A DNA stretch of 32,000 bases from positions 1,229,210 to 1,261,209 of the forward strand of contig CAXXTD010000001.1 in assembly GCA_963675615.2 (NCBI GenBank), read 5' to 3'. Shown piece by piece: positions 15,627 through 32,000 of this stretch (position 1 is its first letter; every line of letters begins with the position of its first letter). The position numbers and the translations under genes were made by a program. Under the pieces are notes generated by a model. That model saw only the letters and a list, made by a program, of their open reading frames with translations. It did no database searches and had not been told where the DNA came from. This stretch comes from an uncultured Desulfobacterium sp. (GTDB taxonomy: Bacteria; Desulfobacterota; Desulfobacteria; Desulfobacterales; Desulfobacteraceae).

Positions 15627-17730
15627 TCAAGCCCCCTTGCCGGCCTGGGCCTGTATGGCCGTGATGGCTACCGTGTTGACAATGTCCGGAACCGTGCAGC
15701 CCCGGCTCAGGTCGTTGATGGGTTTGTTCAACCCCTGGAGAACGGGACCGATGGCCACGGCTTTTTCCGATGCCCGCTGCACTGCCTTGTAGGTATTGTT
15801 GCCCGTGTTCAGGTCTGGAAAGATAAACACCGTGGCCCTTCCTGCCACCATGGAATCGGGCAGTTTTGTCTTTGCAACCTCAGGATCAATGGCAGCATCG
15901 TATTGAAGGGGGCCTTCAATGGGCAGGGACGGCATCATCTGCCGGGCCAGCAGGGTCGCCTGGATCACCTTTTCCACATCCTTTCCCGTTCCTGAAGATC
16001 CCGTGGCGTAGGAAAGCATGGCAACCCTGGGATCAATACCAAAGACCGCTGCCGTCTTTGCCGACGTGACGGCAATCTCAGCCAGCTGCTCGGCCGTTGG
16101 GTTCGGGTTGATGGCGCAGTCACCAAACACCAGGACCCGATCCTTGAGACACATGAGAAACACCGACGAAACAATTGAGGCCCCCGGACAGGTCTTGATG
16201 ATCTGAAACCCGGGTGTGATGGTGTGGGCCGTTGTGTTGATTGATCCGGACACCATGCCGTCGGCATCCCCCTTGTGGACCATCATGGTACCAAAATAGG
16301 TGGGATCCACCATGGTATCCCCGGCCATGTCCAGGGTGACTCCCTTGGACTTGCGTATCTCGTAAAAGGTCTTGACATAATCTTCCAGAAGGGGACTCTT
16401 GTCCGGCTGCACAATGTTCGCCCCGGACAGATCCAGGCCCAGCGCCTGGCTCTTTTGATTGACGGCATCAACCCGGCCGAGCAGGGTGATGTCACAGACG
16501 CGGCGGCGTAAAAGAATCTCGGCGGCCCGCAGGATTCTCTCTCCAACGCCCTCGGGCAGCACGATATGCTGCCGTATCTTTTTTGCCTTTTCAATAAGAC
16601 CGAATTCAAACATCTGGGGGGTGATGCGCAAAGATTTCCTGGCAGCCAGTTTGTCTCGAAACTCTTCCGTATTTACATGGCTCTCAAACGTGCCAAGGGC
16701 CAGGGCTATCCGCTTGGGATTTTCCGGAGAAATCCTTCCCTGGAGCTGGTTCAGCGCCATTACCGCTGAATAGGTTGTTGCCCCTGACTGGAGAATGGGC
16801 ACGGGCACCCCCTTCCACCCCTCGATAAGCCGGATGATCGTTTCCGGCATCCGGATTCCCTCGGTCACCAGGATACCTGAGATATCGGGATAGGACGTGG
16901 AATACCGGGAGGCAAGACCGGTTAAGACAATGCTTGACCGATCCCCGGAACTCACGACCAGGCTGTCCTTTTTGATGTGGTTGAGAAAGTCCGGGGCCAG
17001 CATGGCGGCAATGACGCAATCCGAAATCTGGTTGTCCATGGCCTCCTGACCGTAGAGCACCTCTGCGCCGAAATAGTTTTGAACGTCCCGGAGGGTGGGC
17101 CGGCCCAGGCCATCCAGCTCCGGAATCGTGTAGACCAGGTTGTCGGACCGGTAAAGTTTCTCTTTAAGGATCGCCCTTAACTCTTCCAGGCAAAGGGGAT
17201 CCACGCGGTTGACCAGCACCCCAAGCACATCCACCCCTTTGCTTTTAAAACTCTCAATGGCAATCTGGTTGGCGCTGACCACCTCATCAATGCTCTTCTG
17301 AAAACCGTTGGACACCACCAGGGCAGGTGTACCGAGATCCGCCATGATGTCAGCGTTGATATCAAACTCAAAGGCTTCACTGCCGGCAGCGCAATCGGTG
17401 CCCTCGCACAGGACAAACCGGCACTTTTCCTCGAGCTGCTTGTACTTGTTGAGTATGGTCTCCATCATTTCAGACTGGCGGCCCGAATTGATCATTTTCC
17501 GCCTCTTCCATGGTATAGGCATAGGTTTCCTCGTACCTTAAGCCCATGTAGAAGTGGGACAGCACAAGATCAATGTCAAAATCTTTACCCTTGTTTCCAG
17601 GCGGATTGATAATCGGCCTGAAAAACCCGACAATTCGAATGTCCCTTAGCAGCAGCTGCATGATCCCGAGCACAATCAGCGATTTTCCACTCCGGGTCTG
17701 GGTGGATGTGATGTATAGACTTTTTGCCAT
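15627..17730 (-). pseudogene. pta: phosphate acetyltransferase, long (about 700-aa) form, split by a 1-nt frameshift (or sequencing error) into ORFs 17470..17730 and 15627..17522
   Basis: The C-terminal PTA domain is unmistakable (SGSINTTAHTITPGFQIIKT, VFGDCAINPNPTAEQLAEIA, ATVFIFPDLNTGNNTYKAVQR). The N-terminal part MAKSLYITSTQTRSGKS...AYTMEEAE continues as (K/N)MINSGRQSEMMETILNKYKQLEEKCRFVLCEGTD only after a frame change within GCGGAAAATGATC (about 17491-17503). The total span of 2104 nt equals 3n+1. Confidence 0.85.
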
Positions 17731-17774
17731 GTTCAAATCCTTTTTTTGTTTTTTGGAGAACTCCATGGCTTTTT

Positions 17775-17790
17775 AGCAAAATAGATGCCA
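17775..17790 (-). promoter_or_regulatory. sigma54 (-24/-12) promoter upstream of pta
   Basis: The minus strand reads TGGCAT(17790-17785)-ctatt-TTGCT(17779-17775), against the consensus TGGCAC-N5-TTGCW. It lies 45 nt upstream of the pta ATG at 17730, in the 255-nt gap after the sigma54 activator gene. Confidence 0.6.
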
Positions 17791-17846
17791 CGGCAGGTGG
17801 TCTGCCGACAATGACGACCGGCCGGCCCCAAAAAGGCTGAAACTTC

Positions 17847-17860
17847 ACCCGTGCACGGGT
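17847..17860. promoter_or_regulatory. perfect 14-bp palindrome ACCCGTGCACGGGT, candidate enhancer (UAS) for the pta sigma54 promoter
   Basis: The palindrome was read directly from the sequence. Its near edge is 57 nt upstream of the -24 element. Function is inferred only from position. Confidence 0.3.
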
Positions 17861-17984
17861 TTTCCACCGTCCAGACAATCCAATGGTCCCCCCCATCGCA
17901 TGCCGCGACAATGGCAGGTCTGATATTTTTTTCATGGTGTAAAAAAAATTGACACCCCTGACCCCTGTGGATCAACGCTCCTTG

Positions 17985-19337
17985 CTACTTATATTCAGAC
18001 GGTTGTATCCCGTACTTTTTCACCTTATAATGGATGGCGCGTTTGCTGATGTTCAAAAGATCGGCAGCATGTTTCTGCACCCCCCTTGATTCTTTCAACG
18101 CCCGGATGATCGTATTCTTTTCGCTTTGTTCGATGGAAAATTCCTGTTGTGCGTCAGAAACCAGGGTCGCATCTTTCCGAATATTCTCAATCTGAAGGTC
18201 CCACGGCTGTATGGTATGGTCCTGGCAGAGAATGGTTCCGGCCTCAAGGGTGTTTTTCAATTCCCTGATGTTTCCGGGCCACGGGTGCTCCATGAGAACC
18301 TTCATGGTTGCATCTGCGATCCGGGTTGAGGCAATGCCCTGGGCCCGGGTATATCTATCCACAAAAAAATGTGACAGTACCGGAATATCCTCTTTTCGTT
18401 CCCTCAGGGGGGGAATGATCAGAGTAATGCCCTTTAACCGGTAATAAAGATCCTTTCGAAAGATGCCGGATTCAATATCCGCCTTTAGGTCGGCATTGGT
18501 CGCTGCAATGATCCTGCAATCGATGATTTCGTCCCTGACCGAACCGACCTGCCGAATTTTCCCATCCTCCAGGAATCTCAACAATCGGCATTGCATGTCC
18601 TGGGAAATGTTACCGATTTCATCCAGAAAAAGCGTGCCCTGGTCTGCAGCCTGGATCAGGCCCCGTTTATCTTTGACGGCATTGGTAAACGCCCCTTTGA
18701 GATGTCCGAACAATTCACTCTCCAGGATACCGTCCGGTGTAGAGCCACAGTCAACAATCCTATACGGATGGGACTTTCTGGTGCTGTTCTGGTGGATATA
18801 GCTGGCAATGCATTCTTTGCCCACACCACTTTCCCCCAGGATCAACACGTTGACCTGGGTGGCCGAGACCTTTTGAACCATGGAATAAAGCGCTTTCATG
18901 ATCCGGCTCTTACCCCAGTAATAATCACCGTCAAAGGCGATCGGACATTTTTTCTCTGCGACCTTGCGCTGGACAGCAAGGGTGTCATTGATTTTCTGGA
19001 TCAGCATCCGACCATCAAAGGGTTTTGAAATATAATCAACCGCCCCCTGCCTTATGGCATCCACCGCATCCGGGATGGTTCCGTATGCGGTCAGGAAAAT
19101 AACGGGAAGATCAGGAAGCTTTTTCTGAATCTGTGTGAATAATTCAATACCGCTCTTTTGGGGCATCTTTATGTCTGAGACGAGTAGATCAATGGACTGC
19201 GTCTCTAATATTTGAATGGCAGTTGCTGCATCCCTGGCCCTTAATACTGAAAAATCGGACGCTGTGAGTCTTGCATCAAGCACTTCAAGGATACTGGGGT
19301 CGTCATCAACGATTAATATTCTGGCACCGGCTGTCAT
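17985..19337 (-). CDS. sigma54-dependent response regulator (REC - AAA+ - Fis-type HTH; NtrC family)
   Basis: REC domain: ILIVDDDPSILEVL...DLLVSDIKMPQKSG. AAA+ domain: Walker A GESGVGKE, sigma54-contact loop GAFTNA, Walker B LFLDEIG. C-terminal HTH: AADLLNISKRAIHYKVKKYGI. The ATG overlaps the upstream stop (ATGA). Confidence 0.95.
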   Translation of the reverse strand: MTAGARILIVDDDPSILEVLDARLTASDFSVLRARDAATAIQILETQSIDLLVSDIKMPQKSGIELFTQIQKKLPDLPVIFLTAYGTIPDAVDAIRQGAVDYISKPFDGRMLIQKINDTLAVQRKVAEKKCPIAFDGDYYWGKSRIMKALYSMVQKVSATQVNVLILGESGVGKECIASYIHQNSTRKSHPYRIVDCGSTPDGILESELFGHLKGAFTNAVKDKRGLIQAADQGTLFLDEIGNISQDMQCRLLRFLEDGKIRQVGSVRDEIIDCRIIAATNADLKADIESGIFRKDLYYRLKGITLIIPPLRERKEDIPVLSHFFVDRYTRAQGIASTRIADATMKVLMEHPWPGNIRELKNTLEAGTILCQDHTIQPWDLQIENIRKDATLVSDAQQEFSIEQSEKNTIIRALKESRGVQKHAADLLNISKRAIHYKVKKYGIQPSEYK

Positions 19338-20044
19338 TGATTTTTCCTTTTTTCCTGAAGATCCTGGTCAATGCTTTCAAGGGTTGAAATCTGGTGCTGG
19401 AGGGTTTTGACAAGGGTCTGCAATTTATGGATCTCCCTGTTTTGTTTTGCGGTTTGGGCTTTCAACCCGGCAATCAGGTTTAAGGCAGCCGCTTGTTCTG
19501 CCGTCATCAGCCGGCTGCCGTGCTCCAGCACCCTGATCAGCAATTCAGAATCTTCAGGAGGAGCAACGCCCACCCCGGCACGGTCTGCCCGGGTGCTGTT
19601 CCGGTTGTAATGCTGCAGAAATGAAACCAGAACCCTATGGAATGCCGAGGCATCTCCGGCGGTGGCCAATGCCACACAGGCAAGACCAAAACGCCCATAA
19701 TTCTGATCTTCAGGATCTTCTGTCCGCTCTGACAGCGCCTCAAATTTTTCTCTGGCAAGGAGGTAATCACCACTTAAAAAGGCCTGGCGGGACTGTTTGA
19801 CCATCATATTTTCCAGGATCACCGTATCCTCTCGGATCACCGGATCTTCCCTGATCGTCGTACCTTCCCGGATCATCATCTCTTCCTCAATCATCATCTC
19901 TTCCCTGTTCACCGGATACCGGCTCTGGCATTGGCATCCAATCAGGACAAATCCCAGGCATAAATATAAAACAGGTCTGTACAACCCAAAGAGCAGGTGT
20001 GCATTAAATTTCAAACTGCCATCATTCACGTATGATCCAAGCAT
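19334..20044 (-). CDS. putative lipoprotein with hexapeptide-repeat linker, TPR-like middle and C-terminal coiled coil (QseG/YfhG-like position)
   Basis: Signal sequence ending in the lipobox LIGC (Cys37). Six tandem hexapeptides follow, then a coiled-coil C-terminus (EIHKLQTLVKTLQHQISTLESIDQDLQEKRK). GGAG lies 9 nt upstream of the ATG. The gene is sandwiched between the HK and RR genes. Confidence 0.65.
   Translation of the reverse strand: MLGSYVNDGSLKFNAHLLFGLYRPVLYLCLGFVLIGCQCQSRYPVNREEMMIEEEMMIREGTTIREDPVIREDTVILENMMVKQSRQAFLSGDYLLAREKFEALSERTEDPEDQNYGRFGLACVALATAGDASAFHRVLVSFLQHYNRNSTRADRAGVGVAPPEDSELLIRVLEHGSRLMTAEQAAALNLIAGLKAQTAKQNREIHKLQTLVKTLQHQISTLESIDQDLQEKRKNQ
19790..19897 (-). 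repeat. six tandem 18-nt (hexapeptide) coding repeats inside the lipoprotein gene
   Basis: Minus-strand units are atgatgattgaggaagag / atgatgatccgggaaggt / acgacgatcagggaagat / ccggtgatccgagaggat / acggtgatcctggaaaat / atgatggtcaaacagtcc. They encode MMIEEE MMIREG TTIRED PVIRED TVILEN MMVKQS. Confidence 0.8.
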
Positions 20045-20056
20045 CAGTCCAATCTC

Positions 20057-21523
20057 CTATACCGATATTTTTTTCTCCACAGGCAGGGTGAACGTAAAGG
20101 TACATCCTTTGTCGATATTATTTTCAACAAATATTCGACCACCGTGTGCCAGTACGATTCTCCTGGAGATATTAAGACCGAGACCGACCCCGCTCATGTG
20201 ATTTCTGACTTCCTCTGCCCGATAGTATCGCTTGAAAATCAAGCCATGCTTTTCCCTTGGAATGCCCGGGCCGGTGTCTGAAATATTGAAACTCAAAAAC
20301 CCATCCTCCCTGGATTTTGACAGCCAGATATCCACCTGGCTGTTTTCATCTGAAAACTTTATGGCATTGCCGATAATATTCACCAATACCTGCATAATCT
20401 CCCTGGCTTCCCCCATCACCCGGGGCGCCCCGGTCAGGGGGTGGACCTGCACATTCGTGTTCTTTATCTTTGCTGTGGCGTCAAGGGACTCAATGGCTTG
20501 AACAATAAGCGGGTTGGGATCAAGGGAGGCTGGATTTGATTTTTGAGTCCCGGCCTCGAGCATGGAAATGTCCAGCAGGTGGTTTAACAGGCTGGTGATC
20601 CGCGTAATTTCAGAACCGGCCAGTTTTAAAAACTTCTTTTGTCGTTCATTTACCGGGCCCAGAATCTCTTCGATAATCATGTTAACGGATTCCTGAACAG
20701 ACGAGAGCGGGGTTCTGATTTCATGACTCAAGGTGGCAATAAAGTCAGACCGGATATCTTCATCAGCCTTGAGTTGATGGCTCATATCATTGAATGCATC
20801 TGCAAGTTCCCCGAATTCATCCCTGGATGAAACAACCACCTCGTGGGCATAATTATCCATTGAGATCTGGCTCAACCCCAGCTTTAATTTATTCAACGGG
20901 ATTAACATTGATTTTGAAATAAACAAAATACCGAAAAATCCGACAACCATGGAGATACCGAATCCGATCACACCGTTACGTACAACCAGGCGGCTTTGAC
21001 GATTTATCCGGATAAGGCCCTGTTTGATTTGCAAATCGTTGGCATCCCTGGCTTTTGAAATAAGATCCATCCACTCAATAATCAGGTCTTCCTGGTCCCA
21101 TTGCGCAGGTAGATCCATGAAGGCATCCTTTGGACGAAATCCTGTAAACCTTTGATATGCCCCCCCAATTTTTCTCCAGGTTTTTGAGGATTCCAGGATG
21201 TCTGATTCCAGGTGGATGATTTGATCCAGGTCCCGGTTGTATGCCTTGCGGGCAGTTTCAAAAGATTCAAAGTACAATGTTTTTTTCAACAACCTGAATT
21301 TTTTATCATTGACCTCCATATCCATGAGGCTGTCCCGCAGATTCTCGGACAATTCCGCTATCTGGTTGTTTACGGTCACGATGCGGGATGATATTTTTGA
21401 CATATCCCGGACCTTTATAAACATATTCACGACTGTACCGTAAAATATGAGAATAAAAAGGGAAAAGAATAGAACCAGTTTTCTTGAGATGCCTAATTTC
21501 ATGGGCCTGCTGCCAATATCCAC
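20057..21523 (-). CDS. sensor histidine kinase (TM - about 150-aa extracytoplasmic region - TM - HAMP - HisKA - HATPase)
   Basis: H-box FIATLSHEIRTPL, N-box VNIIGNAIKFS, G-boxes ISDTGPGIP and GVGLGLNISRRIV. Two hydrophobic helices flank the sensor region. Confidence 0.92.
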   Translation of the reverse strand: MDIGSRPMKLGISRKLVLFFSLFILIFYGTVVNMFIKVRDMSKISSRIVTVNNQIAELSENLRDSLMDMEVNDKKFRLLKKTLYFESFETARKAYNRDLDQIIHLESDILESSKTWRKIGGAYQRFTGFRPKDAFMDLPAQWDQEDLIIEWMDLISKARDANDLQIKQGLIRINRQSRLVVRNGVIGFGISMVVGFFGILFISKSMLIPLNKLKLGLSQISMDNYAHEVVVSSRDEFGELADAFNDMSHQLKADEDIRSDFIATLSHEIRTPLSSVQESVNMIIEEILGPVNERQKKFLKLAGSEITRITSLLNHLLDISMLEAGTQKSNPASLDPNPLIVQAIESLDATAKIKNTNVQVHPLTGAPRVMGEAREIMQVLVNIIGNAIKFSDENSQVDIWLSKSREDGFLSFNISDTGPGIPREKHGLIFKRYYRAEEVRNHMSGVGLGLNISRRIVLAHGGRIFVENNIDKGCTFTFTLPVEKKISV

Positions 21524-21777
21524 GTTTTACAGGAACCAATGGGTCAGCGTTATTCCAAAAGCGTTGAAAGACTGGTTATCCTGCTATTTTTAAAGGTTTT
21601 TAGCATTTGGGGGATCACAAGTCAAACAGGTCATAAGGCCTGACTGCAAAAGCAATCGTGCCCCCTTGGAAACAAAGGGTAAAATTCGTACCCGAGGGTG
21701 CAATTTTCGTAACTTTCAACGGATTGAGCACCATGAAAACACTTGAACACCCCCCATTTATCAACCCCATCAAACCG

Positions 21778-21793
21778 TGGCATGACGGTTGCT
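21778..21793 (+). promoter_or_regulatory. sigma54 (-24/-12) promoter upstream of the glycosyltransferase gene
   Basis: TGGCAT(21778-21783)-gacgg-TTGCT(21789-21793) on the + strand, about 100 nt upstream of the ATG at 21895, in the divergent HK/GT intergenic region. Confidence 0.55.
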
Positions 21794-21894
21794 AAGGTAT
21801 CAGGCAAAACAAAATGCGGATATGGCAACGGATGCCGCATAAGGCACAATTTGAGTCGTATTTTCGAAAATAAGGAAACAGGGAGATTAATAAG

Positions 21895-23292
21895 ATGGTA
21901 CCATGGGTTAATCCTGGGTTACTGGATAAACGAACGGGTAAAATGGCGGCCCTTATCTGCATAGCCATTGTTGTATTTGCAGCCTGGCAGGGTGTTATTC
22001 GTGGCGCCTCCATGGCGAATCTGCTGATCAGTACAACCTGGGGAAAGGGGTTTGTTCTATTTTGCGGAATTTTCATGATACTTACCTTTGCTGAATTTGT
22101 ATGGCGGGCCGTGCTGGTATTGATGTACAAGCCCATTCAAAGCTGCGATGACAATTTTCTTCCGGAATGTACAATCATTGTTCCGGCCTACAACGAAGGC
22201 AGGCAGGTTTTTGTAACCCTTGAAAGCCTTGCGGCCAGCAATTATCCCAGGGATAAATTCAAAATAATTGCCGTGGACGACGGAAGTGTGGATGATACCT
22301 GGAAATGGATTCAAAAGGCCAAAAAAAAGCTGGGAAGCAGGATTACCACCATCAAACAGCCCTGCAACAGGGGAAAACGCCATGCGCTCTATGCCGGGTT
22401 TAAACAAAGTATCGGAGAGGTTCTGGTCACCGTTGACAGTGACTCAACCGTTGATACGGACACCCTGAGAAATATGGTAACCCCCTTTGTTGTGGATCGA
22501 AACGTAGGCGCTGTTGCCGGGAATGTAAGGGTTTTAAATATGGACAAGGGGATTATCCCCAAAATGCTGGATGTGGTATTTGTCTACAGCTTTGATTTTA
22601 TCCGTGCCAGCCAGAGCATGGTCAAGGCAGTGATGTGCACCCCTGGCGCACTGTCTGCCTACCGCAGAAGTGTGGTCATGGATGTGCTGCACGAATGGCT
22701 GAACCAAAAATTCTGCGGTCAGCCGGCCAACATCGGTGAAGACCGTGCAATGACCAACCTGATCCTCAGACAGGGGCACCACGTCCTGTTTCAACAGAAT
22801 GCCAGGGTCTATACCGAAGCCCCGGTTAAGTATGTGACCCTTTGCAAGATGTATTTACGATGGGCAAGGAGCAATATCCGTGAAACCATTGCCATGAGCC
22901 GCTTTATCTTCAAACCCTTCCGCAAGGGTTCAAAGCTTGGGGCAAGAATCAACCTCGTGTCAGGCTGGGTGGCGCTGACCAAGGCCCAGCTTTTTCTTGT
23001 GATCACCTGGGGATTGATTGTCTGTCATCCCATGACCTTTGGCGTGAATACAATGCTTGGGGTCGTTATCTCTTCAAGTCTGGCTGCAACGATCTATGCA
23101 TGGAAATTTGGTCGTTTCTCTTGCCTGTGGGCCTTTGTTTATGGGTTTTACTTTTTTGTCTCTCTGTTCTGGATCAGACCCTATGCACTTCTGACACCCC
23201 ACAAATCAGGCTGGCTGACACGTCAGGTTGAATCTCGACCAGCCCATCCTGGGAAAAATATATTTTTGCAAAAAGCCAAAACAGCGGCCTAA
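21895..23292 (+). CDS. membrane-integrated processive family-2 glycosyltransferase (NodC/HasA/PgaC-like polysaccharide synthase)
   Basis: IIVPAYNEG, AVDDGSVDDT, VTVDSDS (DxD), GEDRAMT, and an LRWARS motif (QxxRW-type). Hydrophobic helices lie before and after the catalytic domain. The start may instead be the in-frame ATG 21943 (MAALICIAIV). Confidence 0.88.
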   Translation: MVPWVNPGLLDKRTGKMAALICIAIVVFAAWQGVIRGASMANLLISTTWGKGFVLFCGIFMILTFAEFVWRAVLVLMYKPIQSCDDNFLPECTIIVPAYNEGRQVFVTLESLAASNYPRDKFKIIAVDDGSVDDTWKWIQKAKKKLGSRITTIKQPCNRGKRHALYAGFKQSIGEVLVTVDSDSTVDTDTLRNMVTPFVVDRNVGAVAGNVRVLNMDKGIIPKMLDVVFVYSFDFIRASQSMVKAVMCTPGALSAYRRSVVMDVLHEWLNQKFCGQPANIGEDRAMTNLILRQGHHVLFQQNARVYTEAPVKYVTLCKMYLRWARSNIRETIAMSRFIFKPFRKGSKLGARINLVSGWVALTKAQLFLVITWGLIVCHPMTFGVNTMLGVVISSSLAATIYAWKFGRFSCLWAFVYGFYFFVSLFWIRPYALLTPHKSGWLTRQVESRPAHPGKNIFLQKAKTAA

Positions 23293-23322
23293 CAGACTGA
23301 ATCTGACGGTTTTTAAAAGAGC

Positions 23323-23365
23323 GGCCTGGAACCGGATTATCTTAACCGGTTCCAGGCCGTTTTTG
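23323..23365 (+). terminator. rho-independent terminator after the glycosyltransferase gene (probably bidirectional)
   Basis: The 13-bp perfect stem GGCCTGGAACCGG (23323-23335) pairs with CCGGTTCCAGGCC (23346-23358), leaving a 10-nt loop (attatcttaa), or 8 nt if the closing A-A is ignored. GTTTTTG follows on the + strand, and CTCTTTT follows on the minus strand. Confidence 0.8.
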
Positions 23366-23407
23366 CTTCCATTCTTTAGCCCATTATTGCTCCAGGATCG
23401 TTTTTGC

Positions 23408-23677
23408 TCAAGGGCACCATGGATAAGGCCGGAAGGTGCTGAAATTCACACTGACAGCAACAATTCGCCGGGTTCTCCCGGTCCGGTATTGTCCTATCCG
23501 CAACGACGTATTCCCGCCATCGCTCCAGTCGATCACATCGGCCAGGGGAATGTCGAGGACATTCAGGACATGGATGGCGTCGGATGCAAGCAGGCGGTAG
23601 TTCAAAGGCCTATTGCCAATTCCAGACTCACCATGCCCCCGGGTGTCCGGCAGCACAACCCGATGACCGGTTGCCAC
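23408..23677 (-). pseudogene. alpha/beta-hydrolase gene remnant
   Basis: The 89-aa ORF carries ATGHRVVLPDTRGHGES and the nucleophile-elbow region VIDWSDGG (GWSDGG-type, with the first Gly replaced by Asp). It lacks both the N-terminal HG oxyanion segment and the whole C-terminal half. The same frame upstream (FFWLSQIPWLV) has no start codon and no LLLHG-like segment. Confidence 0.5.
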
Positions 23678-23919
23678 AAGCCAGGGAATCTGGGATAACC
23701 AGAAAAACCTGTTTAGGCCGGAACCTGGTTTACGACGGACATCATCGCTATTCGGTTCTCTATTGTAATCGCTTCCTTTGGTTTTTTACCAGATATGAGA
23801 CCCTCTTTACATTGCCCGGGCCATGCTTATTCTTTTCTTCTTGAACAATTGTGGAAAACCATGAAAAAAGCCTCCCCCTGCAAAGGGGTTTAACATATTA
23901 GACAACGGAAACCAGCACC

Positions 23920-26841
23920 ATGAAAAACGGCGAATCAGCAATGAAATCCATTATAAAGGATATCAAACCCGGCAAAACCATGGAACTTGACACCATCATC
24001 GTCAAGGGAGCCAGGGAGCACAACCTGAAAAATATTGATGTGACACTTCCCAAGAAACGACTCATCGTATTCACCGGGGTGTCAGGATCAGGAAAGTCAA
24101 GCCTTGCCTTTGACACCATCTTTGCCGAGGGTCAGCGCCGCTACGTGGAATCCCTCTCCTCCTATGCCCGGCAGTTCATCGGACAGATGGAAAAACCCAA
24201 GTACGACACCATACGGGGACTTTCCCCCACCATTGCCATCGAACAGAAGGCTGCCAGCAAAAACCCGAGATCCACCGTGGGGACCATCACCGAGATCTAC
24301 GACTACCTCAGGGTGCTGTTTGCCAGGATCGGCACCCAGTACTGCTTTCGATGCGGCAAAAAGGTGGGCCAGGGCAATGCCGAAACCATGGTTTCCCAGA
24401 TTCTCTCCCTTCCCCTGGGTTCCAAAATCCTGGTCATGGCCCCCATTGTTGAGAACCGAAAGGGCGAACACCGGGACCGGCTGGATGATCTCAAGAAAGA
24501 GGGGTTTGCCCGGGTCAGGATCAACGGCGTGGTCCAGGATCTGTCCGATGTTCAAACCCTGCCCAAGAACAAAAAACACAACATCGAGGTGGTAGTGGAC
24601 CGCCTGGTCATCAAGAAAGACCCGGCGTTTACCCAGCGCCTCACCGACTCGGTGGAGACCGCCCTTAAACTTGGCAGCGGACGGCTCCTGGTACACATCC
24701 CGGGCCGGGAAGACCTCAAGATGAGCGAGGCCCGGTCCTGCTGCGGCATGGCCTATCCCGAACTTGTGCCCCAGCTCTTTTCGTTCAACTCACCCCTTGG
24801 CATGTGCTCTGAATGCAACGGCATCGGCACCCTCCTGTCCATGGATGTGAACAAGGTCGTTGCCGACCCCACCCTTTCCATCCGCCAGGGGGCGGTTATT
24901 CCCTGGAAAAATTATTTTCTGAAAAACCCCCGCTATACCAACAGCTCCTGGGGCAAAGACCAGCTCCTGGCCATGGAAGCGCAGTGGGATCTGGACTTTG
25001 ACACCCCCTGGAAGGATCTGCCCCGGGACCAGCAAAAGTTGATCCTGGACGGTTCCAACGGCAGGGAGCTGACCGTCAACTGGAACTCGGCAAAGATCCA
25101 GGGCGAGGTGACCATGTCCCACGAGGGGATTCTCAACACCCTCATGCGCCGTTACCGGTCCACCCAGTCCGAAGGTTCCAAACGGTACTATTCGGGATTC
25201 ATGACTGCCAAACCCTGCCCGGCCTGCCATGGACGACGACTGAAGGAAGAGGTGCTCCACGTACTGATCAACGGCTGTTCGATCATTGATCTCACCGAGA
25301 TGACCATCCAGGAGGCCCATGAATTCATCTCCCGCCTTGAGCTTGAGGGCAACCAGCAACTCATTGCCGAAGAGTTATTAAAGGAGATCCAGGACCGCCT
25401 GGGATTCCTTGTAAATGTGGGGCTTGACTATCTCTCCCTGGACCGAAACGGCCCCACCCTGTCCGGCGGTGAATCCCAGAGAATACGCCTTGCCTCCCAG
25501 ATCGGATCGGAACTTACCGGCGTTCTCTATATTCTGGACGAACCCTCCATCGGCCTGCACCAGCGGGACAATGGTAAACTGCTCAAAACCCTCCACCACC
25601 TCCGGGACATCGGCAATACCCTCATCGTTGTCGAGCACGACCAGGAAACCATGGAAGAGAGCGACTGGATCGTGGACATCGGCCCGGGCGCCGGCCACCT
25701 TGGTGGCCAGATCGTGGCCCAGGGAACCCCGAACCAGATCAAACACGACCCCATGTCCATCACCGGCCGGTTCCTTAGCATGTCCGAAACCATTGAAATT
25801 CCAGAAAAAAGACGAACCCCAGAGGAGATGGGCAGCCGTTTCGTCACCATCAAGGGGGCCACAGAGAACAACCTGAAAAATGTCACGGCCAGGATCCCCC
25901 TGGGTCTGGTCGTTGCCGTCACCGGGGTCTCAGGGGCCGGCAAATCCACCCTCATCAACCAGATCCTCTATCCGGCCCTGGCCGTGGCACTCAACAACGC
26001 CACCCTGGAGGTTGGCCGTCACAAAGCCATCACGGGCCTTGATCACCTGGACAAGGTCATCAACATCGACCAGAAACCCATCGGAAGGACCCCCAGGAGC
26101 AACCCTGCCACCTACACCAAGGTGTTCGATCCCATCCGGGAACTGTTTGCCAGTCTTCCAGAGGCCAGGGCCAGGGGCTACCAAAAGGGACGCTTTTCGT
26201 TCAATGTCAAGGGCGGCCGGTGTGAGGCCTGCCACGGGGACGGCTACATCAAGGTGGAGATGCATTTCCTGGCCGACGTGTTCGTTCCCTGTGAGGTATG
26301 CCATGGAAAACGGTTTAATACCGCCACCCTGGAAATCAAATACAAGGACCACTCCATTGCCGACGTGCTCGACCTTTCCGTGGTCCAGGCCATGGCGCTG
26401 TTCCAGAACCACCCCAAGATACGCACCATCCTCACCACCCTCATGGATGTGGGGTTGACCTATATTAAACTGGGCCAGGCCGCAACCACCCTGTCCGGGG
26501 GTGAGGCCCAGCGCATCAAGCTTGCCCGGGAGCTTGCCAAAAGGAACACGGGCAAAACCCTCTACATCCTGGACGAGCCCACCACGGGCCTCCATTTCCA
26601 GGACGTCAGACTTCTCCTGAAGGTGCTCCAGCGCATCTCCCTTGCCGGCAACACCGTGATCATCATCGAACATAACCTGGATGTGATCAAGACGGCCGAC
26701 TGGATTATCGACCTGGGCCCCGAAGGGGGGCACAGGGGCGGAAAAATCATTGCCCAGGGGTCTCCGGAACAGGTGGCCCGTTCAAAGCAGAGTTACACAG
26801 GATACTTTCTGAAAAAAATGCTGGCATCCCGGAAAAACTAA
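23920..26841 (+). CDS. uvrA: excinuclease ABC subunit A
   Basis: GAREHNLKNIDV, Walker A GVSGSGKSSLAFDTI and GVSGAGKSTLI, two LSGGE signature motifs, and zinc-finger cysteines (CxxC pairs). Possible alternative starts at 23941 and 23980. Confidence 0.97.
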   Translation: MKNGESAMKSIIKDIKPGKTMELDTIIVKGAREHNLKNIDVTLPKKRLIVFTGVSGSGKSSLAFDTIFAEGQRRYVESLSSYARQFIGQMEKPKYDTIRGLSPTIAIEQKAASKNPRSTVGTITEIYDYLRVLFARIGTQYCFRCGKKVGQGNAETMVSQILSLPLGSKILVMAPIVENRKGEHRDRLDDLKKEGFARVRINGVVQDLSDVQTLPKNKKHNIEVVVDRLVIKKDPAFTQRLTDSVETALKLGSGRLLVHIPGREDLKMSEARSCCGMAYPELVPQLFSFNSPLGMCSECNGIGTLLSMDVNKVVADPTLSIRQGAVIPWKNYFLKNPRYTNSSWGKDQLLAMEAQWDLDFDTPWKDLPRDQQKLILDGSNGRELTVNWNSAKIQGEVTMSHEGILNTLMRRYRSTQSEGSKRYYSGFMTAKPCPACHGRRLKEEVLHVLINGCSIIDLTEMTIQEAHEFISRLELEGNQQLIAEELLKEIQDRLGFLVNVGLDYLSLDRNGPTLSGGESQRIRLASQIGSELTGVLYILDEPSIGLHQRDNGKLLKTLHHLRDIGNTLIVVEHDQETMEESDWIVDIGPGAGHLGGQIVAQGTPNQIKHDPMSITGRFLSMSETIEIPEKRRTPEEMGSRFVTIKGATENNLKNVTARIPLGLVVAVTGVSGAGKSTLINQILYPALAVALNNATLEVGRHKAITGLDHLDKVINIDQKPIGRTPRSNPATYTKVFDPIRELFASLPEARARGYQKGRFSFNVKGGRCEACHGDGYIKVEMHFLADVFVPCEVCHGKRFNTATLEIKYKDHSIADVLDLSVVQAMALFQNHPKIRTILTTLMDVGLTYIKLGQAATTLSGGEAQRIKLARELAKRNTGKTLYILDEPTTGLHFQDVRLLLKVLQRISLAGNTVIIIEHNLDVIKTADWIIDLGPEGGHRGGKIIAQGSPEQVARSKQSYTGYFLKKMLASRKN

Positions 26842-26859
26842 CATTAAGATACAACCCAT

Positions 26860-28281
26860 ATGGCCCAAAAAGAGAAAAACAAATGGCTGATCTTTACCTG
26901 TGTGGCCCTGGGGGTCTTCATGTCCACCCTGGACTCGAGCATTGTCAACATTGCCCTGCCCTATATCATGCAGGACATGGGAACAGGGCTTGCGACCATT
27001 CAATGGGTGGTGGTGATCTATCTGCTCACCATCTCCTCGCTGCTGCTCACCTTTGGCCGCCTGAGCGACATTCGGGGCAAACGGATGGTGTACACGGCTG
27101 GATTCCTTATATTTACAGTGGGTTCGTTCCTGTGCGCCATGGCCCGGACCCCCCTCGTTCTCATCATCTCCCGGGCCGTGCAGGCCTGCGGCGCCGCCAT
27201 GCTCATGGCATGCTCGCCGGCCCTGATCGTGGACACCTTTCCGGTCAGGGAGCGGGGCAAGGCCCTGGGCATGGTGGGCGCCGTGGTGGCAGCGGGTCTC
27301 ACGGCAGGTCCGGTGGCGGGCGGAATTCTCCTGGATCTGTTTTCATGGCGGTTCCTCTTCTACATCAACATCCCCATGGGCATTGGTGCAGCCCTGGCCG
27401 GTTTCCTGATCCTCAAAACCAGCCGGGCCGACCACGCCAATCTTGAACCCATGGACAAAACCGGCAGCCTCCTGCAGGGCATCAGCCTGGTCTGCCTGAT
27501 CGTGGTCCTTACCCACCTCAACCAGTGGCCGTTTTTCTCGGCCAGGACCATGGGGTTCCTGCTCCTATTTGCCATGGCCAGCCTGGGATTCATCTGGAAC
27601 GAAACCCGGACCCCCTATCCCCTGTTTGACCCGGCCCTGATAAAAATCCGGCTGTTTGTGCTGCCCGTCATCACCTCGGCCATCATGTTCGGGGCATTGT
27701 TTGTCATCGTATTCATGATGCCCTTTTTCCTGGTTCATCCCTGTGGCCTGTCGGCATCGGCCACGGGACTTGTAATGATCACCCCCTTTGTCCTGCTTTT
27801 CTTTATCAGCCCCCTGTCGGGCGTCCTTTACAACCGGACCGGTTCAAGACTTCCCTGCACCCTGGGAATGACAATTCTGGCCCTGGCCCTGCTTGCATTT
27901 ACCCGGGTCAAGGCATCCTCGGGCATGACCGCCATTGTATGGTGCCTGGCCCTGGCCGGCACGGGCACCGCCCTTTTTATTTCACCCAACAACACTGCAG
28001 CCATGGGAGCTGTTCCAGCCAACCGCCGGGGCATTGCATCGGCTGCCGTGGCAACATCCAGGAACCTGGGAATGGTCATGGGCGTTGCCATTGCAGGATT
28101 GATCTTCACCAGCACTTTTGCCGGTCTCAACCATGGCATTCCCTTTAAAACATACTCATTGGCCGTGGAGCCGTTCTTCATGGCAGGGTTTCACAGGGCC
28201 ATGGCCGCAGGGGCACTCATGGCATTCCTGGGCAGCCTCCTATCGTTTTTACGGGGGGATGACCGGCCCGGCATTCATTGA
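26860..28281 (+). CDS. MFS transporter, DHA2 (EmrB/QacA-like) drug:H+ antiporter type
   Basis: 473 aa and highly hydrophobic, with about 14 predicted helices. MFS motif A-like GRLSDIRGKRMV. Starts 18 nt after the uvrA stop. Confidence 0.88.
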   Translation: MAQKEKNKWLIFTCVALGVFMSTLDSSIVNIALPYIMQDMGTGLATIQWVVVIYLLTISSLLLTFGRLSDIRGKRMVYTAGFLIFTVGSFLCAMARTPLVLIISRAVQACGAAMLMACSPALIVDTFPVRERGKALGMVGAVVAAGLTAGPVAGGILLDLFSWRFLFYINIPMGIGAALAGFLILKTSRADHANLEPMDKTGSLLQGISLVCLIVVLTHLNQWPFFSARTMGFLLLFAMASLGFIWNETRTPYPLFDPALIKIRLFVLPVITSAIMFGALFVIVFMMPFFLVHPCGLSASATGLVMITPFVLLFFISPLSGVLYNRTGSRLPCTLGMTILALALLAFTRVKASSGMTAIVWCLALAGTGTALFISPNNTAAMGAVPANRRGIASAAVATSRNLGMVMGVAIAGLIFTSTFAGLNHGIPFKTYSLAVEPFFMAGFHRAMAAGALMAFLGSLLSFLRGDDRPGIH

Positions 28282-28348
28282 TCCGCCCTTACCTTTACCG
28301 GGCAGATTTACAAAATGACATGTAAACTGACACAGATTGCATTGCTTC

Positions 28349-28371
28349 CCCTATCCACAAAGGGGATAGGG
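28349..28371 (+). other. GC-rich stem-loop downstream of the MFS gene
   Basis: CCCTATCC (28349-28356) pairs with GGATAGGG (28364-28371) around a 7-nt loop. No U-tract follows on either strand, so its role (terminator or protein-binding palindrome) is undetermined. Confidence 0.35.
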
Positions 28372-28431
28372 CCCCCCGGTTCACAACGTATTCGGAGGTG
28401 AATTTCAAATCTTTCTCCCCCTGAATTTACT

Positions 28432-28447
28432 TGGCATAATCTTTGCT
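28432..28447 (+). promoter_or_regulatory. sigma54 (-24/-12) promoter upstream of the YcaO gene
   Basis: TGGCAT(28432-28437)-aatct-TTGCT(28443-28447). The expected start site at about 28457 sits virtually on the first ATG of the ORF (28460). Confidence 0.6.
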
Positions 28448-28486
28448 GACATTACTTTAATGATAAAAAACCAAGGAGACGTATCT

Positions 28487-30199
28487 TTGACAGAAACCCT
28501 GGAATATACCTTAACCCTGACCGACACCCAGCTTGCCACCGGTTTTTTCAAAGCCCTTCCCGCTTTTGAACCCTCCCTGGAACAGGCCCTTGCCCTGCTC
28601 AATGTCCGGCCCATGGACCAGTTTCTCCACCAGCATGCCCTGGACCTCATGGCCGATTCAAACCCGGAGCAGCTGGCGGCGTTCATCACCCGGGCAAAGG
28701 CTGAAAACAACATGGTTTTAAAGGCCCTGGCCTGCGAACAGCTCCTCCTGTCCCACGCCGTTCCAAAGGTAAAACAATTTTTTTCAAGTCAGACCCTTGC
28801 TGAACTGTGCCACCACACCCCCCTGGTGGATATCCGGTCGGCCCTGATGCCCAACCACCGTCTCCACAGGGGCTGGATCAGAATATTCAGGGCCAACATG
28901 GTTGAGCATACCCCCCTTCCCCCCCTGGAAGAAACAGGCCTTCCCCCCATCTGCCAGGGGGAATGCAGGGTCAGCCACCTGCCCCCCACGACCATTGCTG
29001 AACTGGGGCCGGTCAAAGGCAGAGACACCGGCAGCAAGGAGAAATTCACCCTTGAACAGACCGCCCGGACAGCCATGGAACGGCTTGAAAAAGCCGGCGT
29101 CAGGTTCGAGGAGGAGATGCGCCACGAATCAAGCCTGAGCCCGTTTGCCCTGCTCAGGCGATGGCAGTTTTCCACAACCACCACCAACCGCCGGAACCGG
29201 TTCACCCTCCAGGGCCCCCAGACCAGCTATGGCAAGGGCCTCTCCCTTGAGCATGCCAGGGCCTCCCTTGCCATGGAGATGGTAGAACGGTGCTCGGCCT
29301 TTGCCACGATCTCGGACAAGGAGGTGGTGGGGTATGCAACACCCTATCCCCTGACCCGGGCCACATACCAGGAGCTCCTGGACCAGGGGAAAAAAGCGTT
29401 GAATCCCCAAGATTTGGCCCTTGAGGTGAACTACAATGACGAACCCCTCCACTGGATAGAGGGATCAACTCCTGGAACGAACGGCCTGAAACCGGCCATG
29501 GTACCGGTCCAGGCCCTGTTCCTCTTCTGCAACCTGGATGAAACCGCCCTGTTTTCCGGCCTTGGCTCCACGGGGCTGGCTTCGGGTAACACCATGGAAC
29601 AGGCAAAGGTTTCCGCCCTCCTCGAAGTGGTGGAACGCCACCAGGAGGCAACGGTTCCCTTTACCCCGGAAACCTGCTTTAACCTCATTCCCGGCAGCAG
29701 CGGTATCGCATCCCTCATGGACGGATACCGGGCCATGGACATACATCTCCAGTTCCAGGACCTGACACCAAAGTCGGGCATTCCCTGCTGCAAGTGCTTT
29801 GTCAGGGCCAAGGACGGCACCATCCACAAGGGAACCGCAGCCCACCTCAACGCCAGGCAGGCCATTGTCTCTGCCATGACCGAGACCCCCTTTCCCTTTC
29901 CCTCGGGACCGCCGTCGGCACAGGGAATGGCCGATCTCGTGCCGGTGGGGTACGACAACCTGCCCGACTATTCCACCAGCGACCATGGCCAGGATCTATC
30001 TCTGCTGGAAAAACTGCTGCTGGCCAACGGCAAACGACCCTATTATGTTGATCTGACCCGCAGGGACATCGGCCTTCCCGTTGTAAAGGCCCTGATCCCC
30101 GGAATGGATATCCTTGGAGATTTTGACCGGTTTTCAAGGGTTCACCCTGAACTGTTCCAGAACTATCTCGACCAGTTCAGTCGCCCCAACAACCAATGA
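28487..30199 (+). CDS. YcaO-domain protein with an uncharacterised N-terminal extension of about 190 aa
   Basis: The YcaO core spans roughly aa 195-579 of the listed ORF. It carries the two conserved ExxER ATP/Mg-binding motifs (LAMEMVERCS, LLEVVERHQ), STGLASGNTMEQA, and a C-terminal ALIPGMDILGDF. I prefer the start at TTG 28487, 8 nt after AAGGAG (28473-28478). The ORF-track ATG 28460 has no SD and coincides with the predicted sigma54 start site. Confidence 0.85.
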   Translation: MTETLEYTLTLTDTQLATGFFKALPAFEPSLEQALALLNVRPMDQFLHQHALDLMADSNPEQLAAFITRAKAENNMVLKALACEQLLLSHAVPKVKQFFSSQTLAELCHHTPLVDIRSALMPNHRLHRGWIRIFRANMVEHTPLPPLEETGLPPICQGECRVSHLPPTTIAELGPVKGRDTGSKEKFTLEQTARTAMERLEKAGVRFEEEMRHESSLSPFALLRRWQFSTTTTNRRNRFTLQGPQTSYGKGLSLEHARASLAMEMVERCSAFATISDKEVVGYATPYPLTRATYQELLDQGKKALNPQDLALEVNYNDEPLHWIEGSTPGTNGLKPAMVPVQALFLFCNLDETALFSGLGSTGLASGNTMEQAKVSALLEVVERHQEATVPFTPETCFNLIPGSSGIASLMDGYRAMDIHLQFQDLTPKSGIPCCKCFVRAKDGTIHKGTAAHLNARQAIVSAMTETPFPFPSGPPSAQGMADLVPVGYDNLPDYSTSDHGQDLSLLEKLLLANGKRPYYVDLTRRDIGLPVVKALIPGMDILGDFDRFSRVHPELFQNYLDQFSRPNNQ

Positions 30200-30268
30200 C
30201 AAAGGATGCCTGACCTGAAACGATCCACGGTAATCATATGAGGCTCGACACCCTGAAGCGAGTAAAAA

Positions 30269-32000
30269 ATGCAGCGTTTAAAATCCTTCCGGCACCCCAT
30301 TTTAATCGTTATCCTGCTGACCCTGATGACAACGGGGACAGCAATCCCGGATGAGGGTGACACACAGACAGAGAAACAAGCCCAGGAACAACGCACAACC
30401 CTTGATCCAGTACTGGTGACGGCCCGGGGCAGACAGAGCCTGGCCTCTGAAACCCCTGGGGGTGTGGGTGTCGTCGACCATCAAGAAATTTCAGCATTCC
30501 ATCCCCTAAGCCTTACCCATGCCGCTGTCCGCATTCCAGGCGTTGACAAATCATCGGACGCCGCCTGGGGATCGGCCATGACCATCCGGGGGCTTGGGAG
30601 AAACGCCTTGATTTTTCTGGTTGACGGGTGCCGGGTCAACACCTCAACGGACATCAATGCCCGGTTCGGCCTGATCAACCCCCTTGACATCGAGCAGATC
30701 GAGGTGCTCAAGGGGCCCATTTCAGCCCTCTACGGATCGGGCTCCACGGGCGGCGTTGTCAACGTCATCACCCGGACAGGAAAATTCACCCCAATGCCCA
30801 CCTGGAGCGGAGAAATCACCAACACCATTGCCTCCAATCCCCAGGGCAATGATTCCTTTGGACGGGCCACCTACCACAGCAAAAACCTATGGGTTTCTGC
30901 ATCGGCCGGTTTCCGTGATTATGCCTCCTATGAATCCGGCAGCGGTGAAAAGATCGACAACAGCCAGTTCGAGGATTTAAGTCTTAACGCAAGCCTTGGC
31001 CTGCGGGAAAATTCCCTCAACACCACCCGGTTCCAGGTCCAGCACCTCAGGGGCGAAGAGATCGGCATCCCCGGAAAGGGCCTGGCCCTGCCCGTCGGAC
31101 CGGATGTGACCTATCCCGACGTAAACCGAACCCTGATCAATCTCACCCACACCCTTGCCCCGGAAACCCCTTTGATTACAGAGTCAAGCCTCAACCTCTT
31201 TTACCAGAAAATTGAGCGACGGGTGCGCCTGGACCATTTTCCACCAGGGCCAATCTTACAATTAAGACCCCAGGCCGACCATGACACCTGGGGAGTAAAA
31301 TGGCAGAACACCCTCACCCCCGGAAACCACACCCTTGTTGCCGGTGTGGACATCTGGAACTGGGAAATTTCAAACTCAAACCGTTACAGGGAGTTTGCAA
31401 GCGGCCTGACCGGCGTGGACGCCTCTCTTGCCGATGTGGAGCAATTTTCCGGCGGCATGTTCATGGAAGATGAGTGGCAACTGGGTCAAACCGTCAGCCT
31501 CAACCTTGGGGCCCGCATGGACTACATCAGCGCGGACAGCCAGGATCTCTGCAACTGGATCACCCCCCCCACCCCATCCACGCCCATAACAATTGTACAG
31601 TCTGGACAAAGTTACAGCGACACCAGCTGGAACGCCCATGGGGGCGTCACCTGGAAATTCATGCCCGACTGGAACATGACCTTTATCACGGCCTCTGCCT
31701 TCAGGGCCCCGGACCTGATGGAGCGGTTCAAGTATATCAACCTTGGGGGCGGTGTCGAACTGTTCGGCAATCCAGACCTGGACCCGGAACGATCCCTGTT
31801 CCTGGAATACGGGCTCAACCATACCCGTGACAGGTTCACCGTCTCGGCCTCGGCCTATGTCAATTTTCTGGAAGATCTCATCACGGAAACCGTTGTGGAC
31901 GACACCACCCATGCAATGATGAACGTGGACAGGGCAAGGATCCAGGGAGGTGAGATCGACGCAGCCTGCTTCCTCACCCCCATGCTGACCGCAACGGCCA
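30269..32000 (+). CDS. TonB-dependent outer-membrane receptor (5' part; continues beyond the right edge)
   Basis: Absent from the ORF track because no stop falls in the window. Hand translation from ATG 30269 gives a signal peptide MQRLKSFRHPILIVILLTLMTTGTA and a TonB-box-like LDPVLVTARG. Plug motifs follow: IRGLGRNALIFLVDGCRVN and IEQIEVLKGPISALYGSGSTGGVVNVITR. Beta-barrel-like sequence then stays open to position 32000. Confidence 0.9.
   Translation, partial: MQRLKSFRHPILIVILLTLMTTGTAIPDEGDTQTEKQAQEQRTTLDPVLVTARGRQSLASETPGGVGVVDHQEISAFHPLSLTHAAVRIPGVDKSSDAAWGSAMTIRGLGRNALIFLVDGCRVNTSTDINARFGLINPLDIEQIEVLKGPISALYGSGSTGGVVNVITRTGKFTPMPTWSGEITNTIASNPQGNDSFGRATYHSKNLWVSASAGFRDYASYESGSGEKIDNSQFEDLSLNASLGLRENSLNTTRFQVQHLRGEEIGIPGKGLALPVGPDVTYPDVNRTLINLTHTLAPETPLITESSLNLFYQKIERRVRLDHFPPGPILQLRPQADHDTWGVKWQNTLTPGNHTLVAGVDIWNWEISNSNRYREFASGLTGVDASLADVEQFSGGMFMEDEWQLGQTVSLNLGARMDYISADSQDLCNWITPPTPSTPITIVQSGQSYSDTSWNAHGGVTWKFMPDWNMTFITASAFRAPDLMERFKYINLGGGVELFGNPDLDPERSLFLEYGLNHTRDRFTVSASAYVNFLEDLITETVVDDTTHAMMNVDRARIQGGEIDAACFLTPMLTATA

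Follow-up and report, generated by a model that had tools for sequence, protein, structure and literature searches.

Do three sigma-54 promoters with an identical core, all within 32,000 nt, form a single local regulon? The question is raised by a stretch of contig CAXXTD010000001.1 from an uncultured Desulfobacterium sp. (the whole 32,000-nt stretch is hereafter called the window), in which such promoters precede a pta paralogue, a family-2 glycosyltransferase gene (GT2) and a gene for a YcaO-domain protein. A preliminary description of this DNA proposed that the three are linked through one response regulator encoded at 17985-19337. From the sequence comparisons reported here, we favour another reading, to which we give a probability of about 0.72: one two-component system activates GT2, and the pta and YcaO promoters are separately wired, each with its own upstream region and with activators encoded elsewhere.

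Three candidate sigma-54 promoters

The exact pattern TGGCAT-N5-TTGCT is found three times in the window, at the coordinates and on the strands given in the preliminary description. The matches lie before pta (TGGCATCTATTTTGCT, 17790-17775, minus strand; predicted start ~17764), before GT2 (TGGCATGACGGTTGCT, 21778-21793, plus strand; predicted start ~21804) and before YcaO (TGGCATAATCTTTGCT, 28432-28447, plus strand; predicted start ~28458). Three sites had been considered too many for chance, and dinucleotide shuffles of the window bear this out: they give a mean of about 0.04 matches, with none of 100 shuffles reaching three. Unrelated bacterial loci, 1.5 Mb of real DNA, have the pattern 0-0.07 times per 32 kb.

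All three sites are intergenic and oriented toward a gene. The distance from the end of the promoter to the start codon is 44 nt for pta (ATG at 17730), 101 nt for GT2 (ATG at 21895) and 39 nt for YcaO (TTG at 28487), in agreement with the 40-100 nt estimated before. As the mark of a sigma-54 promoter we used GG at -24 and GC at -12, ten bases apart, within TGGCAC-N5-TTGCW, and all three sites have it. A looser weighted scan of the whole window (TGGCACG-N4-TTGCW) found no further intergenic sites; its next-best matches are intragenic, with a poor -12 element. A consensus scan for rival sigma-70 promoters in the correct orientation at the three sites found none. At the orthologous position, the GT2 site is conserved in three other genomes, the pta site in two and the YcaO site in one of four. 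Every site thus recurs, in the same place, in one or more related genomes, which is why we regard all three as credible sigma-54 promoters.

The identical core of the three promoters is simply the sigma-54 consensus. A "GGTG-AATTT" likeness common to their upstream regions, spotted by eye, dissolved under a position weight matrix (PWM) scan, and we agree with the earlier observation that the three have no upstream motif in common. A search of the leaders for riboswitches and known RNAs gave no Rfam match at E <= 1 over 17000-31000.

The two-component system and its probable glycosyltransferase target

The regulator gene (17985-19337, minus strand) is, as had been stated, the only one in the window to encode a sigma-54 activator; rpoN is not among the window's genes. 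Its product has the NtrC-type domain set of receiver, sigma-54 AAA+ and Fis-type HTH (Pfam Response_reg, Sigma54_activat, AAA_lid_14 and HTH_8), with the Walker A motif GESGVGKE. The sigma-54-contact loop reads GAFTNA (window 18668-18685, residues 218-223) in place of the canonical GAFTGA; the fifth-position variants GAFTDA and GAFTHA are listed as compatible with activity, and N is absent from that list (PMC4641369). The regulator falls below every NCBIfam equivalog cut-off (AtoC, 368 of 714; ZraR, 314 of 760). It is 85% identical to its orthologue in Desulforapulum autotrophicum HRM2 and 67-93% identical across orthologues of the Desulfobacteraceae, the family of which the source organism is a member.

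The regulator belongs to an operon whose first gene encodes a sensor histidine kinase (20057-21523, minus strand; Pfam HAMP, HisKA and HATPase_c), kept together with the regulator in relatives. Between the two lies the gene for a 236-aa protein (19334-20044, minus strand), which the preliminary description called a lipoprotein. It has no family match in Pfam or NCBIfam, and its position is conserved in orthologous loci.

Orthologous kinase-lipoprotein-regulator loci were gathered by a genome-collection scan and context look-ups. The regulator orthologues in Desulfobacteraceae always adjoin sigma-54 promoters with tandem sites of the consensus GTGCA-N5-CGTAAC. In L002 (Desulfobacula), L006 (an uncultured Desulfobacter), L007 (Desulfospira joergensenii), L004 and L025, for example, two divergent sigma-54 promoters lie behind the regulator gene, with the tandem sites between them. 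One of the two drives small secreted proteins; the other drives a ~110-aa protein and, after it, a K+ channel or cation antiporter. The small secreted proteins were left without a family, DUF5818 matching them only below threshold. This arrangement covers L002 11173-14123, L006 11410-12494 and L007 11416-14942, and the antiporters are of the Na+/H+ type with TrkA domains.

Copies of GTGCA-N5-CGTAAC that are perfect at all 11 positions are present in the window, HRM2 (L081), L083, L090, L001, L002, L006 (two copies), L007 and L025, within ~1 kb of the kinase-lipoprotein-regulator operon and always flanking sigma-54 promoters; L003, L004 and L016 have copies with one mismatch. By comparison, 900 kb of unrelated loci hold no perfect copy and seven with one mismatch. 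The DNA-binding helix of the regulator (GVQKHAADLLNISKRAIHYKVKKY) is nearly invariant in exactly the motif-bearing orthologues and has diverged in ~50%-identical homologues that lack the motif. We infer that this regulator uses GTGCA-N5-CGTAAC as its upstream activating sequence.

We scanned both strands of the window (~64,000 positions) with a PWM built from 12 such sites. The highest score of all (26.9 bits) belongs to GTGCAATTTTCGTAAC (21698-21713, plus strand), a perfect consensus centred ~100 bp before the predicted GT2 start. At rank 3 (9.0 bits) stands GGGTAAAATTCGTACC (21677-21692, plus strand), centred ~120 bp before the same start and invariant in four genomes. The two sites are spaced 21 bp apart. 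Terminator-like matches at 21677-21701 turned out to be these palindromic activator sites and were discarded as terminators.

GT2 (21895-23292, plus strand) is divergent from the kinase operon in the window, in HRM2 (L081), in L083 (a 5.77-Mb relative) and in L090. Its promoter reads TGGCATGGCTGTTGCT in HRM2, TGGCACGGCGGTTGCT in L083 and TGGCACGGCTGTTGCT in L090, and in the four-way alignment the promoter element TGGCAYGGCKGTTGCT and both activator sites are invariant. GT2 is thus the probable target of the adjacent two-component system, a link that we consider well supported because the divergent synteny is conserved and the conserved tandem sites track the regulator orthologues. A co-localised activator and target, as here, is the classic pattern described for Desulfovibrio (PMC4641369).

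Starting from the motifs, their conservation and the synteny, we infer a chain of phosphorylation, protein binding and transcription. The kinase, with the conserved 236-aa protein, would phosphorylate the NtrC-type regulator, which would then assemble on the tandem sites upstream of GT2. From there it would activate sigma-54 polymerase at the GT2 promoter and turn on the glycosyltransferase, with the kinase operon read divergently. In a separate observation, a block at 21590-21625 (minus strand), kept in the four genomes, contains TTGACT-N17-TAAAAA on the kinase strand; it resembles a sigma-70-type promoter of the kinase-lipoprotein-regulator operon, and a strict consensus scanner made no call there.

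The GT2 product matches Pfam Glycos_transf_2, Glyco_tranf_2_3 and Chitin_synth_2. It stays far below the NCBIfam cut-offs for NodC (160.8 bits against 550) and PgaC-IcaA (120.3 against 422), and on its domains we call it no more than a GT2 that has a chitin-synthase-like domain and resembles chitin, NodC and PgaC synthases. The ~100-nt GT2 leader contains a hairpin at 21814-21840 (plus strand; RNAalifold, 11 pairs) conserved in four genomes, with no compensatory changes among them and no Rfam match.

These comparisons would supply a target gene and a tandem GTGCA-N5-CGTAAC motif for a Desulfobacteraceae-wide two-component system. Its targets appear to have been exchanged from one lineage to another: in Desulfobacula, Desulfobacter and Desulfospira they are cation transporters and small secreted proteins, in the Desulforapulum lineage a chitin-synthase-like glycosyltransferase. 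The remaining biology is standard control by sigma-54 and an enhancer-binding protein.

Wiring of the pta and YcaO promoters

The preliminary description had the regulator drive both flanking promoters and perhaps the YcaO promoter as well. For GT2 this stands, on the tandem sites and the conserved synteny. It is not supported for pta, where the best PWM score is -0.4 bits (rank 86, background), nor for YcaO, where it is 0.3 bits (rank 68, background) and where the gene block is independent of the regulator. The linkage points the same way: across genomes the regulator is linked to GT2 in HRM2, L083 and L090, and to pta in L086 only, the two being unlinked in L087. YcaO is linked to the regulator only through the GT2-uvrA-MFS neighbourhood of L083, where the promoter is absent.

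A single local regulon, with GT2, pta and perhaps YcaO all under the adjacent regulator, is on these grounds decidedly unlikely, and we do not retain it. It would make use of the window's only activator and of the position of that activator between two of the three promoters. Nonetheless, nothing like GTGCA-N5-CGTAAC precedes pta or YcaO, and in L087, where no regulator lies nearby, a pta cassette retains both promoter and upstream block. HRM2 and L083 retain the regulator-GT2 pair with the pta or YcaO loci elsewhere or without the promoter, and in the window YcaO lies 9 kb off, past uvrA and an MFS gene. Little weight attaches to the lack of a second activator gene in the window, since the genome of a related sulfate reducer codes for 37 sigma-54 activators, which usually adjoin their targets (PMC4641369). 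Clustered sigma-54 promoters should not be equated with one regulon in bacteria that have dozens of activators.

With the pta promoter read as separately wired, what may control it is suggested by a conserved block, GTGTCAATTTTTTTTACAC (17937-17955, minus strand), ~155 bp upstream of the -24 element. Its core, GTGTCAA..TT.TTTT.CA (GTGTCAA-N8-RCA), is invariant and equally placed in the window, L086 and L087, and in the PWM scan it does not match the motif of the neighbouring regulator. We regard it as a candidate site for another activator of pta. L086 has the same regulator-pta order, an identical promoter and an intact pta (pta 92% and regulator 93% identical). L087, with a pta 82% identical, has the promoter TGGCATTTCTTTTGCT before pta, no regulator within 6 kb of it and an M48 peptidase gene nearby. 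No sigma-54 promoter was found before the pta of the glnA-pta-ackA copy in the L083 genome (L089), nor before any of 69 distant pta genes (47-61% identity) in a metagenome Pta scan. Because the promoter is kept without the regulator in L087 and is absent from ordinary and distant pta genes, we take it to belong to the pta paralogue cassette and not to the location beside the regulator. Such a cassette would consist of block, promoter and gene; this lineage has it just behind the regulator gene, another contig at a different place. The gene for its activator most likely lies beyond the window.

The pta gene itself (15627-17730, minus strand; Pfam AAA_26, DRTGG and PTA_PTB) is split over two open reading frames by a 1-nt deletion beside an A run at 17495-17498, as seen against the intact 702-aa gene of L086. 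Over 17470-17522 the window reads GCGGAAAA-TGATC and L086 reads GCAAAGAACATGATC. Because the deletion adjoins a homopolymer, the frameshift may be an assembly error and not the sign of a true pseudogene. The source genome has two pta copies, this one (P0241, called at 622 aa from the frameshift) and, elsewhere, the intact 702-aa P0256, 78% identical.

The YcaO promoter would depend on yet another activator, and its upstream region has a third, different block. This block, TTTACAAAATGACATGTAAACTGACACAGAT (28307-28337, plus strand), lies ~110 bp upstream of the promoter and is a candidate activator site; the part common to the window and L088 is TTTACAAAATGACATGnAAACnGACACA (TTTACAAAATGACATG), and only L088 has it. 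In the contig L088, from a sample that also yielded an HRM2-identical contig, the promoter reads AGGCACAATATTTGCT and its distance from the TTG start is unchanged. The start at 28487 follows an AAGGAG ribosome site and fits P0121, a database protein of 570 aa. The promoter sits inside a uvrA-MFS-YcaO block conserved in L083, L084 and L088, without the regulator in L084 and L088. A TonB-dependent receptor gene follows YcaO in L084 and L088 and not in L083 or L085; in the window the two are probably one operon.

Could the YcaO site be a chance or non-functional look-alike, leaving only two real promoters? The orthologous MFS-YcaO spacers of L083, L084 and L085 have no sigma-54 promoter, and that of L083 is ~110 nt shorter. 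Against this, the site is an exact consensus in the correct orientation, 39 nt before the start; L088 retains GGCAC-N5-TTGCT at the same distance while its flanks diverge; and the background is only ~0.04 per window. We therefore consider a look-alike unlikely. The comparison points instead to a YcaO promoter that is probably real, lineage-restricted and without a tie to the regulator.

Several observations weigh against the separate wiring of pta and YcaO. The upstream blocks are known from few sequences, three for pta and two for YcaO, and the loose pta block pattern is not rare (12 matches in ~2 Mb), so that, written as a regular expression, it recurs too often to serve as standalone evidence. 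One of the 12 sites used to train the PWM is the window's own. Co-localisation is a recognised predictor of regulation, established in Desulfovibrio (PMC4641369), and in two genomes, those of the window and L086, the regulator gene directly precedes the pta promoter. Finally, a simple consensus search found no terminator-like structure between the regulator and pta, and no terminator was found between the MFS gene and YcaO. Read-through may accordingly add to YcaO expression, and it is possible that read-through from the regulator operon adds to that of pta.

pta could also be expressed with the regulator operon by read-through, with the sigma-54 site as a second input; transcription would then tie it to the two-component system with no binding of the regulator at pta. 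The regulator and pta genes are on the same strand with a gap of 254 nt, in which that same search detected no terminator, and L086 keeps the arrangement. However, the search is a simple one, and the retention of promoter and block without the regulator in L087 argues for a self-sufficient cassette. We judge this route unlikely.

A more speculative scenario starts from the chemistry of Pta, which makes acetyl-phosphate, a small-molecule phosphodonor for response regulators. The second pta, inserted behind the regulator gene, may have been captured by the two-component system, or be in the course of capture, through a GTGTCAA-N8-ACAC palindrome that is a loose relative of the regulator motif. 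If so, a regulator-driven pta would form a positive feedback loop and tie central carbon flux to envelope polysaccharide synthesis. We hold this to be very improbable.

Related systems and neighbouring genes

Among described systems, ZraSR-zraP, AtoSC and GlrKR resemble this one in combining a membrane kinase with a REC-AAA+-HTH regulator. The likeness extends to a divergent target, a -24/-12 promoter and tandem activator sites ~100 bp upstream; zraP encodes a small secreted protein, as do the targets in more distant relatives of the system described here. Unlike in these systems, an extra conserved protein with no family match is encoded here between kinase and regulator, the contact loop is GAFTNA, the target is a GT2 synthase and the regulator scores below all equivalog cut-offs. 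The GTGCA-N5-CGTAAC motif, too, was derived here and does not come from a described system.

Two parallels come from another sulfate reducer, Desulfovibrio vulgaris. The first is its lactate-oxidation operon DVU3025-DVU3033, which we take to contain pta and ackA. This operon is under sigma-54 control through the response-regulator activators DVU3023, DVU0539 and DVU0621 (PMC4641369). The likeness lies in a sigma-54-dependent route to what is presumably a pta gene; unlike there, pta in the window stands alone as a second copy under a promoter of its own, outside any por-pta-ackA operon. The second parallel is with DVU0110 and DVUA0057, which serve exopolysaccharide and biofilm genes as sigma-54 activators (Kazakov et al. 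2015, PMC4641369). By description, these also are response-regulator-type activators with co-localised sigma-54 promoters at genes for the cell exterior and polysaccharide. The closest Desulfovibrio homologues of the regulator that we retrieved are 45-48% identical, with a diverged DNA-binding helix and without the motif.

Downstream of GT2, relatives have an M48 peptidase gene between GT2 and uvrA; in HRM2 and L090 it lies beside GT2 and is preceded by a consensus sigma-54 promoter, TGGCACTGCCATTGCT (L081 4852-4867; L090 2836-2851). No remnant of it was found in the window, where 23293-23919 holds only an unassigned 156-aa open reading frame (23228-23698). Then follow uvrA (23920-26841, plus strand), a DHA2 MFS exporter gene (26860-28281, plus strand), YcaO (28487-30199, plus strand) and a TonB-dependent receptor gene (30269-32000, plus strand; NCBIfam TonB-dependent receptor matches), which runs past the window end as an open frame.

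The 570-aa YcaO protein matches Pfam YcaO at residues 258-476 of the longer open reading frame and reaches the NCBIfam cut-off for the TIGR00702 YcaO-type kinase domain (75.7 against 75.65 bits). It is far below the cut-offs of the NCBIfam models for McrA thioamidation, SagD and the S12 accessory protein, and no TfuA or E1-like partner gene lies near it in the window. The N-terminal half of the protein (~240 residues) is uncharacterised. Members of its family are common across Desulfobacterales; as a rule they come after uvrA-MFS, and in some cases a TonB-dependent receptor comes next.

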